Below, one piece after another: positions 4,628 through 32,320 of a stretch of DNA of 44,524 nucleotides (positions are counted from its first letter, which is position 1; each line of letters begins with the position of its first letter). The stretch is from Thermoplasmata archaeon. GTDB taxonomy: Archaea; Thermoplasmatota; Thermoplasmata; Thermoplasmatales; ARK-15. The stretch is from positions 1 through 44,524 of the forward strand of contig JBAMMA010000005.1 of the NCBI GenBank assembly GCA_039794005.1, read 5' to 3'. A program made the position numbers and the translations under genes. The notes under the pieces were generated by a model, which saw only the letters and a program-made list of their open reading frames with translations, was not told the DNA's origin and ran no database searches.

Positions 4628-4700
4628 TGGACCGGTGGGGATTTGAACCCCAGGCCTCCACATTGCAAGTGTGGCGATCTACCAGCTGATCTACCGGCCC
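4628..4700 (-). tRNA. tRNA-Ala(UGC)
   Basis: Acceptor GGGCCGG/CCGGTCC, anticodon arm CCACA-CTTGCAA-TGTGG, T-loop GGTTCAAATCC. Confidence 0.95.
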
Positions 4701-5453
4701 TTATTTCATACCTATATCATCTTCCATCTTTCTTCTCTCTTTTTCCCTTCTTTTTCTCTTTTCCTCTTCTATTGATTTTAACTCCTCTTCTGGAATTTCT
4801 ACCTCCTTTTGTTCCGGCTTTTCGAAATATCCTGGAGGTATCTCCTTTGTAATGTAAATCTTATCATTTGCTTTAAATATAGGCTTACCGTCATCTATCA
4901 ATTTTTTAGCATTTATTTCCAATACAATGGGATTATCGCTTCTATGCCTTCCCGCAATGTATGCCTCCTCATACGTTCCTGAGAGATGAACCCACTTTCT
5001 TTCACCTGGCTTTATGCCTATTTCATTAATAAATTCTTCCTCCTCAGGGACTATTGCATAATATAACCTTTCTGGTATATTATCACTCGGAAGATCGCTC
5101 AGATCTACGTTTATTGAATGACCGTATGTTGCCCTTACCTTGCCGTTAATTTTATCATATTGAAATCTGCCCTTTGGGTCTGTTAATATGAAAGCCTCAA
5201 TATGATATGGTTTTAACCATCTGAACTTCCTGTCTTTTCTTTTAATACCTTCTACAATATCATTGATCTTCGCCCATCCGTTTTGATCTAACCTTACGTT
5301 AAAATTTTCTGGAAAATGCCTTAAAATTCCTGTTATGATTCTGCTTAATGCCTCTACCTCCCAATCATTCAAAATTAATTTACCATTATCTCCACAAACT
5401 GGACACTTCTCTCCCCTGAATGGGCCATGTTTTATACAAGATTTTATTTTCAT
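4701..5453 (-). CDS. kptA: RNA 2'-phosphotransferase (Tpt1/KptA) with N-terminal Zn-ribbon
   Basis: LRH, KGRF, RATYGHS and VHLS motifs; N-terminal CxxH...CxxC. Confidence 0.93.
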   Translation of the reverse strand: MKIKSCIKHGPFRGEKCPVCGDNGKLILNDWEVEALSRIITGILRHFPENFNVRLDQNGWAKINDIVEGIKRKDRKFRWLKPYHIEAFILTDPKGRFQYDKINGKVRATYGHSINVDLSDLPSDNIPERLYYAIVPEEEEFINEIGIKPGERKWVHLSGTYEEAYIAGRHRSDNPIVLEINAKKLIDDGKPIFKANDKIYITKEIPPGYFEKPEQKEVEIPEEELKSIEEEKRKRREKERRKMEDDIGMK

Positions 5454-5627
5454 TTATACACCTAATTCTATCATTGATTATTATAATAAAAATTTTTTTC
5501 TACAATCTAATCAACATATGTTTAATATTTTCTGAATTTTTTAAAGATTTTTATTTTGATTTTATATATTTCATTTATGCCCAAAATATGAAGATTTCAT
5601 TATAGCATTAAGAAAAATAAAATTATG

Positions 5628-5643
5628 GAAAAATATTTAATAT
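5628..5643 (+). promoter_or_regulatory. Putative BRE/TATA promoter of the H/ACA-like RNA
   Basis: GAAAAA followed by TATTTAATAT, about 20-25 nt upstream of the first hairpin; AT-rich background limits certainty. Confidence 0.4.
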
Positions 5644-5660
5644 TAATTGTAAATAAAATG

Positions 5661-5852
5661 ATGTTTCCGTTGAGGAAGCGGTATATATCGGTGATATACC
5701 GTGACGGCGGAAACGTATAGGATGGCCCTGGGCAACGCAGGGATTGTGGTGTGTCACCACGTACGTGAACATGTGTCCAGCAGGGCTATCCATAACCCCG
5801 GCATGGGTCAGACTTCCGGAAAATGATGGATAGTTGTTAATGCCGGGGTATA
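5661..5852 (+). ncRNA. Three-hairpin box H/ACA-type pseudouridylation guide RNA
   Basis: GC-rich island in an AT-rich intergenic region. Hairpins at 5661-5716, 5720-5791 and 5795-5849 are each followed by ATA (ANA box). G-U pairs favour the + strand. Hairpins 1 and 3 have internal pockets 14 nt from the ANA box. Hairpin 3 has a K-loop (TCC-G-GA-AAAT-GA-T-GGA). Confidence 0.82.
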
Positions 5853-5948
5853 ATATATTAAAATTTTATTTTAATAACAAAAAAGAAAAACTATTAATCT
5901 CAATTTTGATAATTATTTTACATTGGTAAATTCATTGGAGGGTATTTA

Positions 5949-6149
5949 ATGAACAGATGCATAATATGTGGAGCTCCGATTAGGGAGGGAACATCTATGT
6001 ATTGTATAGATTGTTTGTACGAAATGAAAAGGGTAAGATTGAAGGATGATGAACCCTTGGAAGAATTTATAGAAAGAAAGAGGGAAAATAACGTTGAGTT
6101 GAAAAATCATGAAAATGTTGCAAAATTAGAGAGGTGGTTTGAAATATGA
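5949..6149 (+). CDS. Small CxxC-x10-CxxC zinc-finger protein
   Basis: CIIC...CIDC; GGAGG RBS; ATGA overlap with the next gene. Confidence 0.75.
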   Translation: MNRCIICGAPIREGTSMYCIDCLYEMKRVRLKDDEPLEEFIERKRENNVELKNHENVAKLERWFEI

Positions 6150-7291
6150 AAATCGAAGATATGTATGTGAAGGATGTAATGAATCCAAATCCCATTTATG
6201 TGGAAGAGAATGAGGTTTTGTCTAAGGTAATATCCAAAATGAAAGAACACCAGATACACGAACTACCAATAGTGGATTCAAAGAAAAAGGTAGTTGGATA
6301 TATAGACTTTGAACATCTCATGAAGAGAAGAAGCATACCCATAACTTCAAAGGTTTCTACCGTCATGATAAAGCCACCAAAGGTAATGGACAGTACGCAT
6401 GTAATAGATGCAATAAAAATAATGGCAAACAACGGTTTGAGAGCAATTCCCGTTACGGATGAGAGTGATACTTTGGTGGGTTTAACTACAAGAACAGATT
6501 TTACAAAGGCATTGCTTAATGCAGAATCATTCACATCAAAACCCGTTGAGGAAATTATGGTCGAAAATCCGGTGGCTGTCCTGGAAGATTCAACGATATA
6601 TGAAGCCTTAGAAAAAATGAGAAAATTGGATGAGATGAGCATACCCGTTGTAAACGAACATAACCATCTCAAAGGAATGGTTCATATTAAAGACATTTCA
6701 AATGCATTGTGGAGGGATAAGGAAAGACCAACCCTGGGAGACATGCATGGTGAAAAGGTAAGGCAGACATTTTTAGTAAAGGATTTTCTATCTCCACCAG
6801 TGAATGTTTTAAAAAATGATAAAATAAAAGACGCGATAAAGGCAATGCTAGATTTAAAGTCACATGTCGTTGCAGTAACCGACAACGAGGGAAAGCTCAT
6901 TGGAATATTGACACAAAAGGATATAATTGAACATTATGCAAGTTCAAAGGCGGAAGAAATGGCGGTAGTCCAGATAACAGGTCTATCTGAGGGGGATGCA
7001 ATACTATTGGATTCCATTTATTCAATTATTGAAAGAGACCTTAAGAAAATGGCAAAGTTTGAAAATTACAAACCATTGTCATTGACTCTTCATGTTGAAG
7101 AGCACGTATCAAAGACATCTGAAATTGTTTACGTTGTAAGGGCAAAGCTGATTACAGAAAAGAAGGTGTTTTATTACACAGACCAGGATGCAAATCTTTT
7201 AGCACTCGTTGACAGGGTCATGGATTCATTGCATAGGATGGTAAGAAAGGAGAAGGAAAAGGAAAAAGAATTGAGGAGATTTATGCCATGA
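6146..7291 (+). CDS. Four-CBS-domain protein with C-terminal HPF/RaiA-like domain (Hib-like ribosome hibernation factor)
   Basis: Four CBS repeats (VKDVM, VSTVM, VEEIM, VKDFL), then about 110 aa with an HPF-like beta-alpha-beta-beta-beta-alpha pattern ending DANLLALVDRVMDSLHRMVRKEK. Confidence 0.8.
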   Translation: MKIEDMYVKDVMNPNPIYVEENEVLSKVISKMKEHQIHELPIVDSKKKVVGYIDFEHLMKRRSIPITSKVSTVMIKPPKVMDSTHVIDAIKIMANNGLRAIPVTDESDTLVGLTTRTDFTKALLNAESFTSKPVEEIMVENPVAVLEDSTIYEALEKMRKLDEMSIPVVNEHNHLKGMVHIKDISNALWRDKERPTLGDMHGEKVRQTFLVKDFLSPPVNVLKNDKIKDAIKAMLDLKSHVVAVTDNEGKLIGILTQKDIIEHYASSKAEEMAVVQITGLSEGDAILLDSIYSIIERDLKKMAKFENYKPLSLTLHVEEHVSKTSEIVYVVRAKLITEKKVFYYTDQDANLLALVDRVMDSLHRMVRKEKEKEKELRRFMP

Positions 7292-19258: not shown

Positions 19259-19466
19259 AGTTTATCTTACATAGGTTATTCAAATTTAACTGTTAAATTT
19301 TTCTTATGTATAAAAAATAAATATTATATATTCAATTTTGGAACAAAACACTCAATTTAAAAAATAGATAATGTAAATTCAAAGAAAAGATAAAATTAAT
19401 AAAAATTATAAAAATTATGAAAAATCGATGAAAAAATTTATTCTTTAAATTTAAATATAATAATTT

Positions 19467-21242
19467 ATGGATTATATTATACTCGCTGAAACCTTTCAAA
19501 GGATAGAAAGCACCACAAAAAGGTTGGAAATAACTGATTATATTGTGGATCTTCTGAAAAAAACAGATGAAAATAACATTGAAAAAGTTGTATTATTGAT
19601 GCAGGGGAGGATTGCACCTGACTATCTTGGTATTGAGTTGGGTATGGCCGATAAACTTGCGATTAAGGCCATCTCCCAAATATATGGTATAACGGAAAAA
19701 GCAATAGAAGAAGAATATCAGAAGAGCGGAGACCTTGGAATTGCAACTGAAAATCTCGCAAAAAATAAAAGACAAAAAACATTGTTTGAATTAGAAGAAC
19801 AGGTTTTAACCGTGGAGAAAGTATTTGAAAATTTTAAGAAAATAGCAGAGCTATCTGGAGAAAAGAGCCAGGATAAAAAAGTATCTCTTTTGGGAGAATT
19901 ACTTAATTATGCAAAACCAATTGAGGCAAGATATATCATCAGGACCGTAACTGGAAAACTCAGGCTTGGTGTTGCCGATGCAACGATATTGGATGCATTG
20001 GCAATAGCTTTTGGTGAGACAAAGGAGATGAGAGATGTTGTAGAAAGGGCATATAACATACATCCTGACCTTGGATTTATAGCAAAAACATTATTAAAAG
20101 AGGGCATTGAAGGTGTAAATAAAATAAAAGTTGAACCGGGCATTCCAATAAAAGTGATGCTGGCTGAAAGATTGCCATCCCTGGAAGAAATTCTGGAGAA
20201 GATGGGCGGAAGGGCGGCTTTTGAATACAAATATGACGGCATTAGAATGCAACCACATGTAACTAAGAATTTTGTCAAGATTTATTCTAGGAGAATGGAA
20301 AATTTGACCGAACAATTTCCGGACATAACCAGGGCAATTAAAATTGCAGCAGGAGACCATGAAGTAATATTGGATGGGGAGGGTGTGCCAGTAAACATTG
20401 AAACAGGAGAATTACTGCCATTTCAGGCAGTTTCTCATAGAAGGGGTAGAAAATATGAGATAGAAAGGGTTGCAGAGGAAGTACCCGTAGTATTATTCCT
20501 GTTTGATATCCTATACCTAGATGGAAATGAATTGCTGACCTTGCCATACCTAAAAAGAAAAGAAATTTTGGAAAGTGTTGTTAAAGAAAATGATAGAATA
20601 AAGTTTGCAAATAGAATTATAAGTGGTGATAAAAACGAGATTAGGAAATTCTTTGAAAAATCTATAGAAGATGGGTGCGAGGGATTGGTTGCAAAAAACA
20701 TATCTGAACAATCCATATACAGGGCAGGAGCTAGGGAATTTTTGTGGATTAAATTTAAAAGGGATTATGAAGCAATCGTTGAAGATACATTTGATCTCGT
20801 CGTTGTTGGAGCATTTGCAGGACACGGGCAGAGGGCAGGAACATACGGTGCTCTTTTAATGGCAGCCTATGATCCTGAAAAAGATCTGTTTGTAACTGTT
20901 TGTAAATTAGGTTCTGGATTTACAGAAGATAATTTAAATTCTATAAGAAAAATATTGGATAATTATAAAATAGAACATAGGCATGGAAGAGTTTTATCAT
21001 TGATAGAGCCAGATTATTGGTTTATTCCTTCCTTAGTTTTGGAAGTAAAAGGGGCTGAGCTTACACTTAGTCCTTTGCATACGTGCTGCATGGATTCAAT
21101 TGAAAAGGGATCTGGAATATCAATAAGGTTTCCAAGATTTACCGGAAATTTTAGGTTTGACAAAAAGCCAGAAGATGCCACAACAACGAATGAAATAATT
21201 GAGGAATACAAAAATCAAAAGAAAAAACTTTTAGAAGAATGA
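19467..21242 (+). CDS. lig: ATP-dependent DNA ligase
   Basis: EYKYDG, LDGE, EGLVAK, WIKFK, SIRFPRF. Confidence 0.97.
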   Translation: MDYIILAETFQRIESTTKRLEITDYIVDLLKKTDENNIEKVVLLMQGRIAPDYLGIELGMADKLAIKAISQIYGITEKAIEEEYQKSGDLGIATENLAKNKRQKTLFELEEQVLTVEKVFENFKKIAELSGEKSQDKKVSLLGELLNYAKPIEARYIIRTVTGKLRLGVADATILDALAIAFGETKEMRDVVERAYNIHPDLGFIAKTLLKEGIEGVNKIKVEPGIPIKVMLAERLPSLEEILEKMGGRAAFEYKYDGIRMQPHVTKNFVKIYSRRMENLTEQFPDITRAIKIAAGDHEVILDGEGVPVNIETGELLPFQAVSHRRGRKYEIERVAEEVPVVLFLFDILYLDGNELLTLPYLKRKEILESVVKENDRIKFANRIISGDKNEIRKFFEKSIEDGCEGLVAKNISEQSIYRAGAREFLWIKFKRDYEAIVEDTFDLVVVGAFAGHGQRAGTYGALLMAAYDPEKDLFVTVCKLGSGFTEDNLNSIRKILDNYKIEHRHGRVLSLIEPDYWFIPSLVLEVKGAELTLSPLHTCCMDSIEKGSGISIRFPRFTGNFRFDKKPEDATTTNEIIEEYKNQKKKLLEE

Positions 21243-21467
21243 TCACAAAATTTCGTATTCTAAAAATTCTTTGTAATATTTGCAACTTTTATTTTTACCA
21301 TCGCAATCAAATATACCCCTCTTTTTACAATATCCGTTATAAAAATATACACATTTTCCTTCAAAGACTGGAAATTTACCATACCATTCGCAATTTTCCT
21401 TTATACATTTATATCCCCTATACCTTCCGTGACAAATACCATCTAAATCCTCAAATGCGCATTTCAT
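21243..21467 (-). CDS. Small Cys-rich protein (two tandem 4-Cys modules)
   Basis: 8 Cys in 74 aa; stop codon abuts the lig stop. Confidence 0.7.
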   Translation of the reverse strand: MKCAFEDLDGICHGRYRGYKCIKENCEWYGKFPVFEGKCVYFYNGYCKKRGIFDCDGKNKSCKYYKEFLEYEIL

Positions 21468-21549
21468 TCAAAACATTTAGGTCCTGTAAATTTATAAAAA
21501 TTTTGTAGTAAAAAATTTGATTTAAAAAATAATAAAAAAATTTATATTT

Positions 21550-21951
21550 TTATTGAGGTGGCTGCTGAGGTGGCTGTGGTAAAACGTAGGGCTGAGGTGA
21601 TGGATTATATATTATGGCCATTATTCCTCCTATAAGTGTAAGAATGAAACCTATGACAAATCCGCCAATTGCTCCGAAGAAACTCAATATTGAAAACATT
21701 ATTAATAGAATTCCGTAGGTCATATGGTTTGAAGGATCGCTCTTTAGTCTAATTGCGATTATTATTATAAATATTCCCCAGATAATTCCAATAATACCAG
21801 CCAGAAATCCCAGGAATCCTAATCCAAAAGTGAACATTGAGAGTACTGTCCCCAATGCTAATAGGATTATTCCACCCGATAAAACGAAAATTCCACCAAT
21901 TAAGGACAAAATATAGGCTGCATTCAAATGGCCAAGATCCTGATTATACAT
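21550..21951 (-). CDS. Four-TM Gly-rich membrane protein with Pro/Gln tail
   Basis: LSLIGG...GGFVIGFILTLIGG pattern typical of a widespread archaeal DUF membrane family. Confidence 0.75.
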   Translation of the reverse strand: MYNQDLGHLNAAYILSLIGGIFVLSGGIILLALGTVLSMFTFGLGFLGFLAGIIGIIWGIFIIIIAIRLKSDPSNHMTYGILLIMFSILSFFGAIGGFVIGFILTLIGGIMAIIYNPSPQPYVLPQPPQQPPQ

Positions 21952-22140
21952 GAATTTAAATAAAAATATAAATATTTAAATTTATCTAATTTTTTTATTA
22001 ATTATTGAAAATCTATTGATTCGATATTTTATGAAAATTAAATTTTCAATTATGTAAATTTTTGATTATTATTCATGAACGTAATTTTTTTAATCTTTTA
22101 AATAAATATAAAAAATTTTTAAAAATAGATTTATTAAATT

Positions 22141-22881
22141 TTATTTTTCCCTCCACTTTATACCACCAAAACCAATTAAAGAATATATTACATCCAGTAA
22201 TACCAGCAAAATCAATAGGATATTAATTTCGCTCTGAAAATAAAGATTTTTGATTATAAGGGAAGCTTCTGTTGTAGGCAAAACGTAAAGTATTGGTTGT
22301 AATTCTTTAGGAATAATGTTTATTGAATAATAGGCAGGTGTTGCAAAAACTATGATAAACGAAATCAAATTTGTAATCGCGCTTGCCATCTGAATGTTCT
22401 TGGATCTTGTTCCAATAATGGCACCTATACCGATTAATGCAATGCTCTCCAATAAAATAACAAAAATTAAGGTGATAAAATAAATGATATTTATGGGAAG
22501 GGACCAGAGAATGCTTGCAATGGGTATAAGTATCAAACATTCTATGAGTATTGAAATCATGTATGTTGATGTAACCCCAAATATATATGAAAATGGATGA
22601 ATCGGTGATGTTCGGTACCATGAAATCACACCTCTTATTCTATCCATTGTTATGAATTGTCCAACCCCATTTATTACAGTAAGAGAAGATGAGAGAACAA
22701 GCATACCGGTTAAATAATTTATTTTGGTATCTAAATTCCAATCAGGTGTAGCCAATGAAATAAGATAAGTCATACCTAGTGGGATAAACAGAGAAATTAC
22801 GATAAAACCTGCTGCACTTTCTCTCAAATTTAGAAGATTAATCTTAGATATTATTATTATATCATCTAGTGTTTTTTTCAT
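22141..22881 (-). CDS. ABC-2 type transporter permease
   Basis: Six TM segments; overlaps the ATPase gene. Confidence 0.85.
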   Translation of the reverse strand: MKKTLDDIIIISKINLLNLRESAAGFIVISLFIPLGMTYLISLATPDWNLDTKINYLTGMLVLSSSLTVINGVGQFITMDRIRGVISWYRTSPIHPFSYIFGVTSTYMISILIECLILIPIASILWSLPINIIYFITLIFVILLESIALIGIGAIIGTRSKNIQMASAITNLISFIIVFATPAYYSINIIPKELQPILYVLPTTEASLIIKNLYFQSEINILLILLVLLDVIYSLIGFGGIKWREK

Positions 22882-32157: not shown

Positions 32158-32320
32158 TTTCCATCACCATTTTTTTGTAAATTCTCCTATATTTTCCATA
32201 TTTATCTTCCAATGAAAATTTAGGAGGATATACATAGACAGTTTCCTCCCCACACTTTGGACATTTATCCTTTAAAGTATATATATTACATTTAAGGCAT
32301 TTTCTCATAATTGATTTCAA
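32150..32320 (-). CDS. nop10: H/ACA RNP protein Nop10 (absent from ORF track)
   Basis: Manual translation from TTG behind GGAGG: MKSIMRKCLKCNIYTLKDKCPKCGEETVYVYPPKFSLEDKYGKYRR...; canonical synteny. Confidence 0.95.
   Translation of the reverse strand: MKSIMRKCLKCNIYTLKDKCPKCGEETVYVYPPKFSLEDKYGKYRRIYKKMVMENG

Follow-up and report, generated by a model that had tools for sequence, protein, structure and literature searches.

A three-hairpin box H/ACA guide RNA candidate related to HgcG/Pab40 in hot-spring archaea of the order Thermoplasmatales

The DNA analyzed, called the window throughout, is the whole stretch of 44,524 nucleotides (nt) at positions 1 to 44,524 of contig JBAMMA010000005.1 from a Thermoplasmata archaeon (assembly GCA_039794005.1; genome handle G000). 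A GC-rich island at positions 5661-5852 of the window, lying between a KptA/Tpt1 gene and a gene for a protein with four CBS domains, was studied as a candidate box H/ACA small RNA (sRNA). This region very probably encodes a three-hairpin box H/ACA guide sRNA that is homologous to HgcG/Pab40 but has diverged from it, its pockets 1 and 2 having been re-specified.

Structure of the locus

Direct reading of the 192-nt island gave three inverted repeats, each with ATA on its 3′ side. This agreed exactly with the initial annotation, which had reported the island, the three stems and ATA at 5717, 5792 and 5850; the TATA-like element it had noted is real and is conserved upstream in homologous loci, and both flanking genes and a nop10 gene within the window were recovered where it had placed them, with the qualification that the HPF-like part of the CBS-HPF gene is a weak, sub-threshold match. 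The GC content of the island is 0.48-0.58 versus 0.15-0.29 in the flanks, the whole genome standing at 31.3%. Folding of the plus strand gave -88.6 kcal/mol (z = -6.38), a stability matched by none of 200 dinucleotide shuffles; the minus-strand fold is weaker (-66.4 kcal/mol, z = -4.83). A genome-wide census of GC islands returned 873 islands and was dropped as too unspecific. Coordinates of all features are collected in Table 1.

Table 1. Features of the RNA locus and of related genes in the window (window positions; RNA elements 5′ to 3′).
Feature	Coordinates	Strand	Details
KptA/Tpt1 gene	4701-5453	-	flanks RNA locus
BRE-like purine run	5627-5633	+	putative sRNA promoter
TATA-like box	5634-5644	+	putative sRNA promoter
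Stem 1	5661-5669 / 5708-5716	+	ATGTTTCCG / CGGAAACGT, read from sequence
Stem 2	5720-5730 / 5781-5791	+	GGATGGCCCTG / CAGGGCTATCC, read from sequence
Stem 3	5795-5804 / 5840-5849	+	ACCCCGGCAT / ATGCCGGGGT, read from sequence
ATA trinucleotides	5717-5719, 5792-5794, 5850-5852	+	read from sequence
Hairpin 1	5661-5716	+	stems covary
Hairpin 1 lower stem	5661-5669 / 5708-5716	+
Hairpin 1 upper stem	5678-5685 / 5695-5702	+	closing G.U 5678/5702
Hairpin 1 5′ guide arm	5670-5677	+	UUGAGGAA
Hairpin 1 3′ guide arm	5703-5707	+	GACGG
Hairpin 1 K-loop	5686-5694	+	UA-UCGGU-GA; variant, U replaces usual first G
ANA box 1	5717-5719	+	AUA, 14 nt from top of hairpin 1 3′ arm
Hairpin 2	5720-5791	+	lower stem and 5-bp helix covary
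Hairpin 2 lower stem	5720-5728 / 5783-5791	+
Hairpin 2 helix	5735-5739 / 5772-5776	+
Hairpin 2 apical stem-loop	5746-5760	+
Hairpin 2 5′ pocket strand	5729-5734	+	UGGGCA; relatives UGGGCC
Hairpin 2 3′ pocket strand	5777-5782	+	CCAGCA
Hairpin 2 internal K-turn	5742-5743, 5764-5766, 5767-5768	+	GA, bulge CGU, GA
ANA box 2	5792-5794	+	AUA, 15 nt from top of hairpin 2 3′ pocket strand
Hairpin 3	5795-5849	+	helices 5-7: 96.5%, 96.0% and 78.5% of cells paired
Hairpin 3 lower stem	5795-5804 / 5840-5849	+
Hairpin 3 upper stem	5811-5818 / 5827-5835	+	bulged U5831
Hairpin 3 5′ guide arm	5805-5810	+	GGGUCA
Hairpin 3 3′ guide arm	5836-5839	+	GUUA
Hairpin 3 K-loop	5819-5826	+	GA-AAAU-GA; GA/UGA form in 46/50 homologs
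ANA box 3	5850-5852	+	AUA, 14 nt from top of hairpin 3 3′ arm
T-rich tract	5864-5872	+	TTTTATTTT; candidate transcription stop
Four-CBS protein gene	6146-7291	+	flanks RNA locus; C-terminal S30AE/HPF-like match weak, sub-threshold
nop10	32171-32320	-

Box spacing was counted by starting at the nucleotide that directly follows the upper stem and running up to the box. The 14-15 nt obtained here agree with the rule that places ANA 14-15 nt from the target position (Muller 2008, PMC2377435). Among the homologs described below, the spacing is 14 nt in 33 of the 36 copies having hairpin 1 (15 nt in one), 14-15 nt in 38 of 50 copies of hairpin 2 (16 nt in five) and 14 nt in all 50 copies of hairpin 3. 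A manual count in this copy gives 10, 9 (plus one bulged base) and 10 layers between the pocket and the distal G.A of the three hairpins; the published distance from kink motif (K-motif, that is, K-loop or K-turn) to pocket is 9-10 layers (Majumder and Gupta 2020, PMC7075261).

The K-loop of hairpin 1 has the form GA(A)...NUGA in 31/36 homologs having that hairpin, the form UA...GUGA being confined to this genome and G001, the other genome of its genus in which the RNA was found. In the latter form the loop-adjacent G.A pair is kept and the second sheared pair becomes A-U. Such variants occur in natural K-turns. For the K-turn of hairpin 2, a crude column read found the 3′-side NUGA in 50/50 homologs and the 5′-side GA in 40/50. 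L7Ae is predicted to bind at the K-loops and the K-turn, that of hairpin 1 included. The lower stem and 5-bp helix of hairpin 2 (helices 3 and 4) are paired in 92.0% and 94.4% of cells, and the arm pair GGGUCA/GUUA of hairpin 3 is the commonest form, retained even outside the order.

With regard to the boxes, "only AUA", as the initial annotation had put it, holds for this genome. It is no rule of the lineage: box 1 of G001 is ACA, and in relatives A is fixed at positions 1 and 3 while N is free, with all four bases seen. Counts were AUA 22, ACA 10, AGA 2 and none 2 for box 1 (36 homologs); AUA 20, ACA 12, AAA 7, AGA 4 and seven not found by the regular expression for box 2 (50 homologs); and AUA 34, ACA 8, AAA 6 and AGA 2 for box 3 (50 homologs). 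Nor are AUA boxes a novelty, AUA being already a functional box in Haloferax sR-h45 (PMC7075261).

Homologs and covariation

At the Rfam gathering thresholds the window yields five tRNAs only. In a permissive scan the single credible match was RF00064 (HgcG, also Pab40), an H/ACA family, at 5607-5857 on the plus strand over the full model (1-276) with 54.2 bits and E = 5e-14. This Infernal/Rfam check, proposed in the initial annotation, brought up no other RNA class. When the loci of relatives were compared with RF00064 at E <= 0.001, 14 of 23 matched with 32-65 bits. HgcG/Pab40 is a known three-hairpin H/ACA sRNA (Toffano-Nioche 2015, PMC4652768; Muller 2008, PMC2377435). The RNA was accordingly unannotated, as had been proposed, since it falls below the Rfam cut-off, but the suggestion that it might be undescribed needs correction as to type: it is a sub-threshold homolog of a described RNA. 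In a limited collection of literature, no description of this particular RNA in Thermoplasma-type lineages was found.

A BLAST search with the RNA matched 2 of 41 genomes, G000 itself and G001; the copy of the latter, the only same-genus copy found, is 83% identical. Between the two, the 49 proposed pairs show six compensatory changes, three one-sided changes that are still paired and five broken pairs, and differing columns amount to 22/98 among paired versus 11/96 among unpaired positions. A covariance model (R1) was built from these two copies. It detected exactly one copy each in 54 of the 121 genomes of the order, G000 included, distributed over families as follows: f1, 15/15; f3, 16/26; f5, 18/21; f4, 1/1; f6, 1/1; f7, 2/55; f2, 0/1. 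In the rest of the class weak matches were obtained in 5 of 133 genomes. In family f5 the RNA has only two hairpins and measures about 150-195 nt, hairpin 1 being absent (L046, L050-L056, L058-L063); two members of the family, L060 and L061, retain an apparent degenerate remnant of it.

In an alignment of 50 homologs the 49 pairs fall into seven helices, with standard pairs in 91.5% of cells. Sliding the partners by 1-3 columns lowered the paired cells to 38.8-50.5%. The covariation check on homologs, also proposed earlier, was thus run across the order: 45 of the 49 pairs change on both sides, values not reached in any of 500 shuffles. The pockets and the ANA spacing, whose conservation had been named as decisive, are kept across the 50 homologs. 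RNAalifold, applied to a MAFFT alignment made independently from 20 of these 50 sequences, called 33 pairs, 23 of them with compensatory changes; these cover the upper stem of hairpin 1, the lower and apical stems of hairpin 2 and parts of the hairpin 3 stems.

Putative promoter and strand

The motif A[AG]A-N1-4-T[TA][TA]A[ATG] at -36..-13 was found in 27/30 homologous loci on the plus strand versus 6/30 at the mirror position on the minus strand. Starts of the promoter motif number 70 in the -40..-21 bins and at most seven in any other 10-nt bin. The B recognition element (BRE)/TATA element upstream of the island probably works as a promoter, and its position predicts a start near the first bases of hairpin 1; for Pab40, a start at the first bases of hairpin 1 was obtained by RNA sequencing (RNA-seq) (Toffano-Nioche 2015, PMC4652768). 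Runs of T follow the RNA on its 3′ side in many homologous loci (unquantified). The helices are paired in 91.5% of cells when taken as plus strand versus 85.4% when read as minus strand. Promoter position and G.U asymmetry therefore favour the plus strand, and argue against transcription from the minus strand only, which the initial annotation had listed as an opposing case. A search of sequencing runs for the locus returned no RNA run; the four matching runs are hot-spring metagenome DNA, and one of them may be the sample of origin. Transcription of the locus is accordingly a prediction: a plus-strand sRNA of about 190-210 nt would be made under its own BRE/TATA promoter, with its 5′ end near 5661-5665 and its 3′ end close to the T-tract (5864-5872).

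Predicted targets of hairpins 3 and 1

Because no assembled ribosomal RNA (rRNA) was found in G000 and G001, targets were predicted on the rRNAs of other genera. For 23S rRNA, G003 and G005 represented the same family and G017 and G019 the same order; 16S rRNAs were taken from these four genomes and from G002. Guide arms were fixed by the structure, and closing G.U pairs were counted in the upper stems. In G002, G003, G005, G017 and G019 the 16S and 23S rRNA genes are non-adjacent (L007-L010, L011-L015); the 2.9-4.7 kb flanking the four scanned 23S genes contain no 16S, which lies on other contigs or far away.

In 23S rRNA the arms of hairpin 3 are complementary to UAAC-UA-UGACCC (4+6 Watson-Crick pairs), which lies in the helix-69 loop. 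This is the only match in one same-family 23S rRNA and ranks first among three in the other, and own guide against own rRNA gave the same site in 4/4 genomes. These arms and the motif-3 pocket of the Rfam consensus match one and the same helix-69 U in each of the order's four 23S rRNAs; the target of Pab40 motif 3 is 23S position 2016 (Muller 2008, PMC2377435).

The arms of hairpin 1 pair with UCGUC-UC-UUCCU in the peptidyl-transferase region of 23S rRNA by 5+5 pairs, a site that is the sole match in same-family rRNAs. The consensus motif-1 pocket and the pocket of a sister family (f16) match U2547 of L004, whereas hairpin 1 here matches U2562, so that the classical motif-1 U lies exactly 15 nt upstream of the hairpin 1 site. 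In P. abyssi (Pyrococcus abyssi), Pab40 motif 1 guides pseudouridine (psi) 2588, and for psi2603 no guide is reported in Pyrococcus, Cbf5-Nop10-Gar1 forming it without RNA (Muller 2008, PMC2377435). Modification of the corresponding U2607 of T. kodakarensis (Thermococcus kodakarensis) depends on Cbf5 and Gar1, Nop10 being dispensable (Fujikane 2018, PMC6138745). Since the pocket matches 15 nt past the motif-1 U and psi2603 lies 15 nt past psi2588, hairpin 1 appears to be aimed at the U2603-equivalent. Its pairing with the classical motif-1 site is weak and non-canonical and, checked by hand, is broken in G001. The single f5 23S rRNA available reads UCUCCCU at the hairpin 1 target, versus UCUUCCU. 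We take the three 23S sites to be Escherichia coli 1915 (helix 69), 2511 (hairpin 1) and 2496 (classical motif 1), the last two presumably corresponding to yeast psi2880 and psi2865.

Cbf5, Nop10, Gar1 and L7Ae are all encoded in the genome. By analogy with solved and reconstituted archaeal H/ACA ribonucleoproteins (RNPs), the RNA would be expected to assemble with these four proteins into a particle with pseudouridylation activity, L7Ae sitting on each K-loop or K-turn and Cbf5-Nop10-Gar1 on the lower stem and ANA box. The strands of the internal loop would pair with rRNA on both sides of an unpaired U-N, placing the U in the Cbf5 active site. Hairpin 3 would then direct psi formation at the first U of the helix-69 loop of 23S rRNA (the psi2016 site of P. 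abyssi), and hairpin 1 at a U of the peptidyl-transferase center equivalent to P. abyssi U2603; modification at both sites is predicted from pairing. The proposal of a multi-target pseudouridylation guide with three hairpins is in this way supported, the H/ACA hallmarks being conserved and none of the opposing cases named beforehand having been borne out.

Alternative explanations

Several results weigh against the guide RNA reading as a whole or against its parts. The 54.2 bits of this copy do not reach the RF00064 gathering cut-off of 77 bits, nor does any of the 23 loci of relatives; with scores below the cut-off in this RNA and in all tested relatives, Rfam-based annotation misses the whole clade. 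The 50-sequence alignment is model-fitted and so biased towards the proposed structure. In the 20-sequence MAFFT alignment, RNAalifold did not call the lower stem of hairpin 1 or the 5-bp helix of hairpin 2, and it paired the pocket strands of hairpin 2 with each other. The K-loop of hairpin 1 is non-canonical in this copy, with U for the first G. Targets had to be read from rRNAs outside the genus. Shuffled arms reach 10 pairs in 14/300 cases for hairpin 3 and in 15/300 for hairpin 1, each match taken alone thus standing at about p = 0.05. In 8 of 16 f1 copies the 3′ arm of hairpin 1 is GACAC or GACAU, with three contiguous pairs to the site. For hairpin 2, no canonical target was found in six 23S rRNAs, five 16S rRNAs or the genome.

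The alternative that survives best concerns hairpin 2, which may be no guide at all: its two pocket strands would pair with each other (GGGC with G[U/G][C/U]C), so that it would serve only as a scaffold or as an L7Ae/Cbf5-binding module after loss of an ancestral target. This we regard as a real contender, somewhat short of an even chance. The searches speak for it. Consensus regular expressions on nine rRNAs and patterns over the G000 genome were negative or at chance level; a 12-nt pattern in five genomes fell in unrelated coding contexts, in numbers near those of the reversed-pattern control; own arms against own rRNA gave no canonical target; and genome scans restricted to GC-rich or tRNA contexts gave 2+2+0 matches, again at chance level. 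A tRNA-Arg was rejected as a target, as it needs the consensus arm and not that of G000. Self-closure of the pocket is found by the single-sequence fold as well as by RNAalifold. The fate of the ancestral target points the same way. The rule-consistent motif 2 target in Pf7 and Afu4 is argued to be the equivalent of Pab 2678 (Muller 2008, PMC2377435). The order's four 23S rRNAs all have C there and two 23S rRNAs of sister lineages have U, and in the sister genome G186 (f15), where the U is kept, hairpin 2 carries a matching AACCCAG arm (7 bp). As the target U has become C in the order and the AACCC arm is gone, both being kept in the sister lineage, the ancestral target was lost and the pocket remodelled.

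A guide function for hairpin 2 is favoured by other observations. Its pocket strands, UGGGCC (UGGGCA in G000) and CCAG(C/A)A, hardly vary within the order, in contrast to the freely covarying true helices, and in this they resemble the guide arms of hairpin 3. The 14-15 nt ANA spacing is kept in 38/50 copies. There is also a weak lead in the 23S A-loop, GCUG-UUC-GCCCA, present in all four 23S rRNAs of the order; it is non-canonical (UNN) with three bases unpaired, and was one of six patterns tried, about 0.5 matches being expected per rRNA set by rough estimate. A second weak lead, UUGG-UGU-GGCCUG in 16S rRNA, occurs in family f1 only.

The rRNA around the lost target differs between clades. 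At internal positions of about 2620-2650 (H90-H92) in L003-L006, the order's four 23S rRNAs share GAGAUGGGUUCACUACGUCGCGAGACAG, where the two of sister lineages have GGGUUUAC, a clade-specific change in a normally conserved stretch that holds the motif-2 target U.

Next in standing is the possibility that the RNA is an H/ACA guide whose hairpin 1 does not serve the U2603-equivalent, having another target or being inactive; any psi at that position would then be the work of guide-free Cbf5-Gar1. We consider this unlikely, though not to be neglected. Besides the shuffling result and the non-canonical K-loop of this genus, it draws on the absence of hairpin 1 from family f5 and on the half of the f1 copies that pair by 3 nt on the 3′ arm, the 3′-arm duplex being the one that matters most (Muller 2008, PMC2377435). 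A fortuitous match is argued against by the arm cores (GGAA and GAC), complementary to invariant rRNA bases and present in 32/36 copies while the flanking arm positions vary, and by the canonical 14-nt ANA spacing in 33/36 copies. Own guide against own rRNA returned the same site in 3/3 genomes, as the sole match at >=8 pairs (that is, at least eight). Moreover, psi at the U2603 site has been documented in Pyrococcus and Thermococcus, and conservation of the site extends to eukaryotes (Muller 2008, PMC2377435).

That the locus holds no H/ACA RNA but another structured noncoding RNA, a minus-strand transcript or a 56-amino-acid (aa) minus-strand open reading frame (ORF) at 5623-5793 is very improbable: the sub-threshold Rfam score, the minus-strand fold that also exceeds its shuffles (z = -4.83) and a 56-aa minus-strand ORF at the same place in G001 are outweighed by the lack of any other credibly scoring Rfam family, by H/ACA hallmarks that are all present and conserved, and by the promoter position and G.U pairs that favour the plus strand. 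The ORF itself was rejected as a gene, the G000 and G001 versions having no detectable protein similarity despite 83% DNA identity.

The RNA is therefore classed firmly as an archaeal box H/ACA guide sRNA, an HgcG homolog lying outside the Rfam boundary. Interest attaches to two predictions drawn from sequence comparison: hairpin 1 appears to have been re-aimed by 15 nt, and hairpin 2 has kept a conserved but orphan pocket. The joint proposition, that the order re-aimed hairpin 1 by 15 nt to the U2603-equivalent and that hairpin 2 gained a new conserved pocket, possibly for a non-canonical target, we judge to be evenly balanced.

Neighbouring genes

A search for loci related to that of the four-CBS protein gave distant bacterial matches only, and in a protein atlas Cbf5 of this genome fell among several archaeal phyla. 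KptA is an RNA 2′-phosphotransferase associated with tRNA splicing. A tRNA gene (4628-4700, minus strand) lies directly downstream of KptA/Tpt1 on the same strand, with a gap of 0 nt by the ORF coordinates. Between the RNA and the four-CBS gene, a 66-aa ORF (5949-6149, plus strand) carries two CxxC pairs and is zinc-ribbon-like; Pfam gave no match. Its stop codon and the start codon of the CBS gene overlap (ATGA), and G001 has a 71-aa ORF at the matching position (L002 590-805).

In the cbf5 region (L073; contig C1, about 19377-22547), an upstream 179-aa P-loop kinase-like ORF overlaps cbf5 by 25 nt, and a 276-aa ORF follows downstream with a 4-nt overlap. The latter presumably resembles a Nop5/Nop56-type protein of C/D-box sRNPs.

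Implications

If the target of hairpin 1 is as predicted, the same conserved psi would be made by RNA-guided and by RNA-independent modes of one enzyme in different archaea, which bears on evolutionary exchange between guided and stand-alone Cbf5 activities. The RNA would also exemplify guide re-specification, with one pocket kept (helix 69), one shifted by 15 nt and one orphaned by change of its target U to C. In addition, a conserved unannotated guide RNA gene is added to an order of hot-spring archaea; the Rfam HgcG threshold misses this clade, and the R1 model with the 50-sequence alignment could seed a broader family model. The known workings of H/ACA RNPs are unaltered by the finding.

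Comparison with known systems

The closest known relatives are HgcG, Pab40 and Pf7 (RF00064; Methanocaldococcus, Thermococcales), which likewise are built of three H/ACA motifs in tandem, every one of which has a K-loop or K-turn and an ANA box. The hairpin 3 pocket (5′ arm GGGUCA here, GGUUA in the consensus; 3′ arm GUUA) targets the same helix-69 U as motif 3. Differences lie in the score (54.2 bits for a cut-off of 77), in the boxes (AUA here, ACA in the consensus) and in the two other pockets. Motif 1 targets U2588, whereas hairpin 1 here matches a U 15 nt downstream, and hairpin 2 here is without the AACCC arm that the family consensus shares with sister lineages. In the family, the motif 2 pocket is aimed at the Pab 2678 equivalent, or at 1932 in P. 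abyssi itself. Afu4 of Archaeoglobus fulgidus, compared by description, also has three H/ACA motifs; its motifs 1 and 3 share the Pab40 targets, so that, unlike here, motif 1 serves the classical site (Muller 2008, PMC2377435).

In Haloferax volcanii sR-h45, the 3′ hairpin guides helix-69 uridines and the 5′ hairpin the equivalent of the classical motif-2 site (PMC7075261). These 5′ and 3′ hairpins parallel hairpins 2 and 3 here, and the two-hairpin form of family f5 has the same layout. The internal box of sR-h45 is likewise AUA, and the two-hairpin RNA needs it for function (PMC7075261). In contrast to the RNA described here, sR-h45 has two hairpins and a 56-nt linker (PMC7075261), its 5′ hairpin has a known target while none was found for hairpin 2, and its helix-69 pocket leaves UNUN unpaired, giving two psi, where the second U here pairs with the 5′ arm.

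Finally, the predicted target of hairpin 1 is the same rRNA position that is modified without a guide by Cbf5-Gar1 in Thermococcales, namely U2603 of P. abyssi and U2607 of T. kodakarensis. There, no guide RNA was found for the site and Cbf5-Gar1 acts alone (PMC2377435; PMC6138745), whereas here a complementary canonical pocket with 14-nt ANA spacing is present. The pocket at the U2603-equivalent suggests that an RNA-guided route to this psi is taken in this order.

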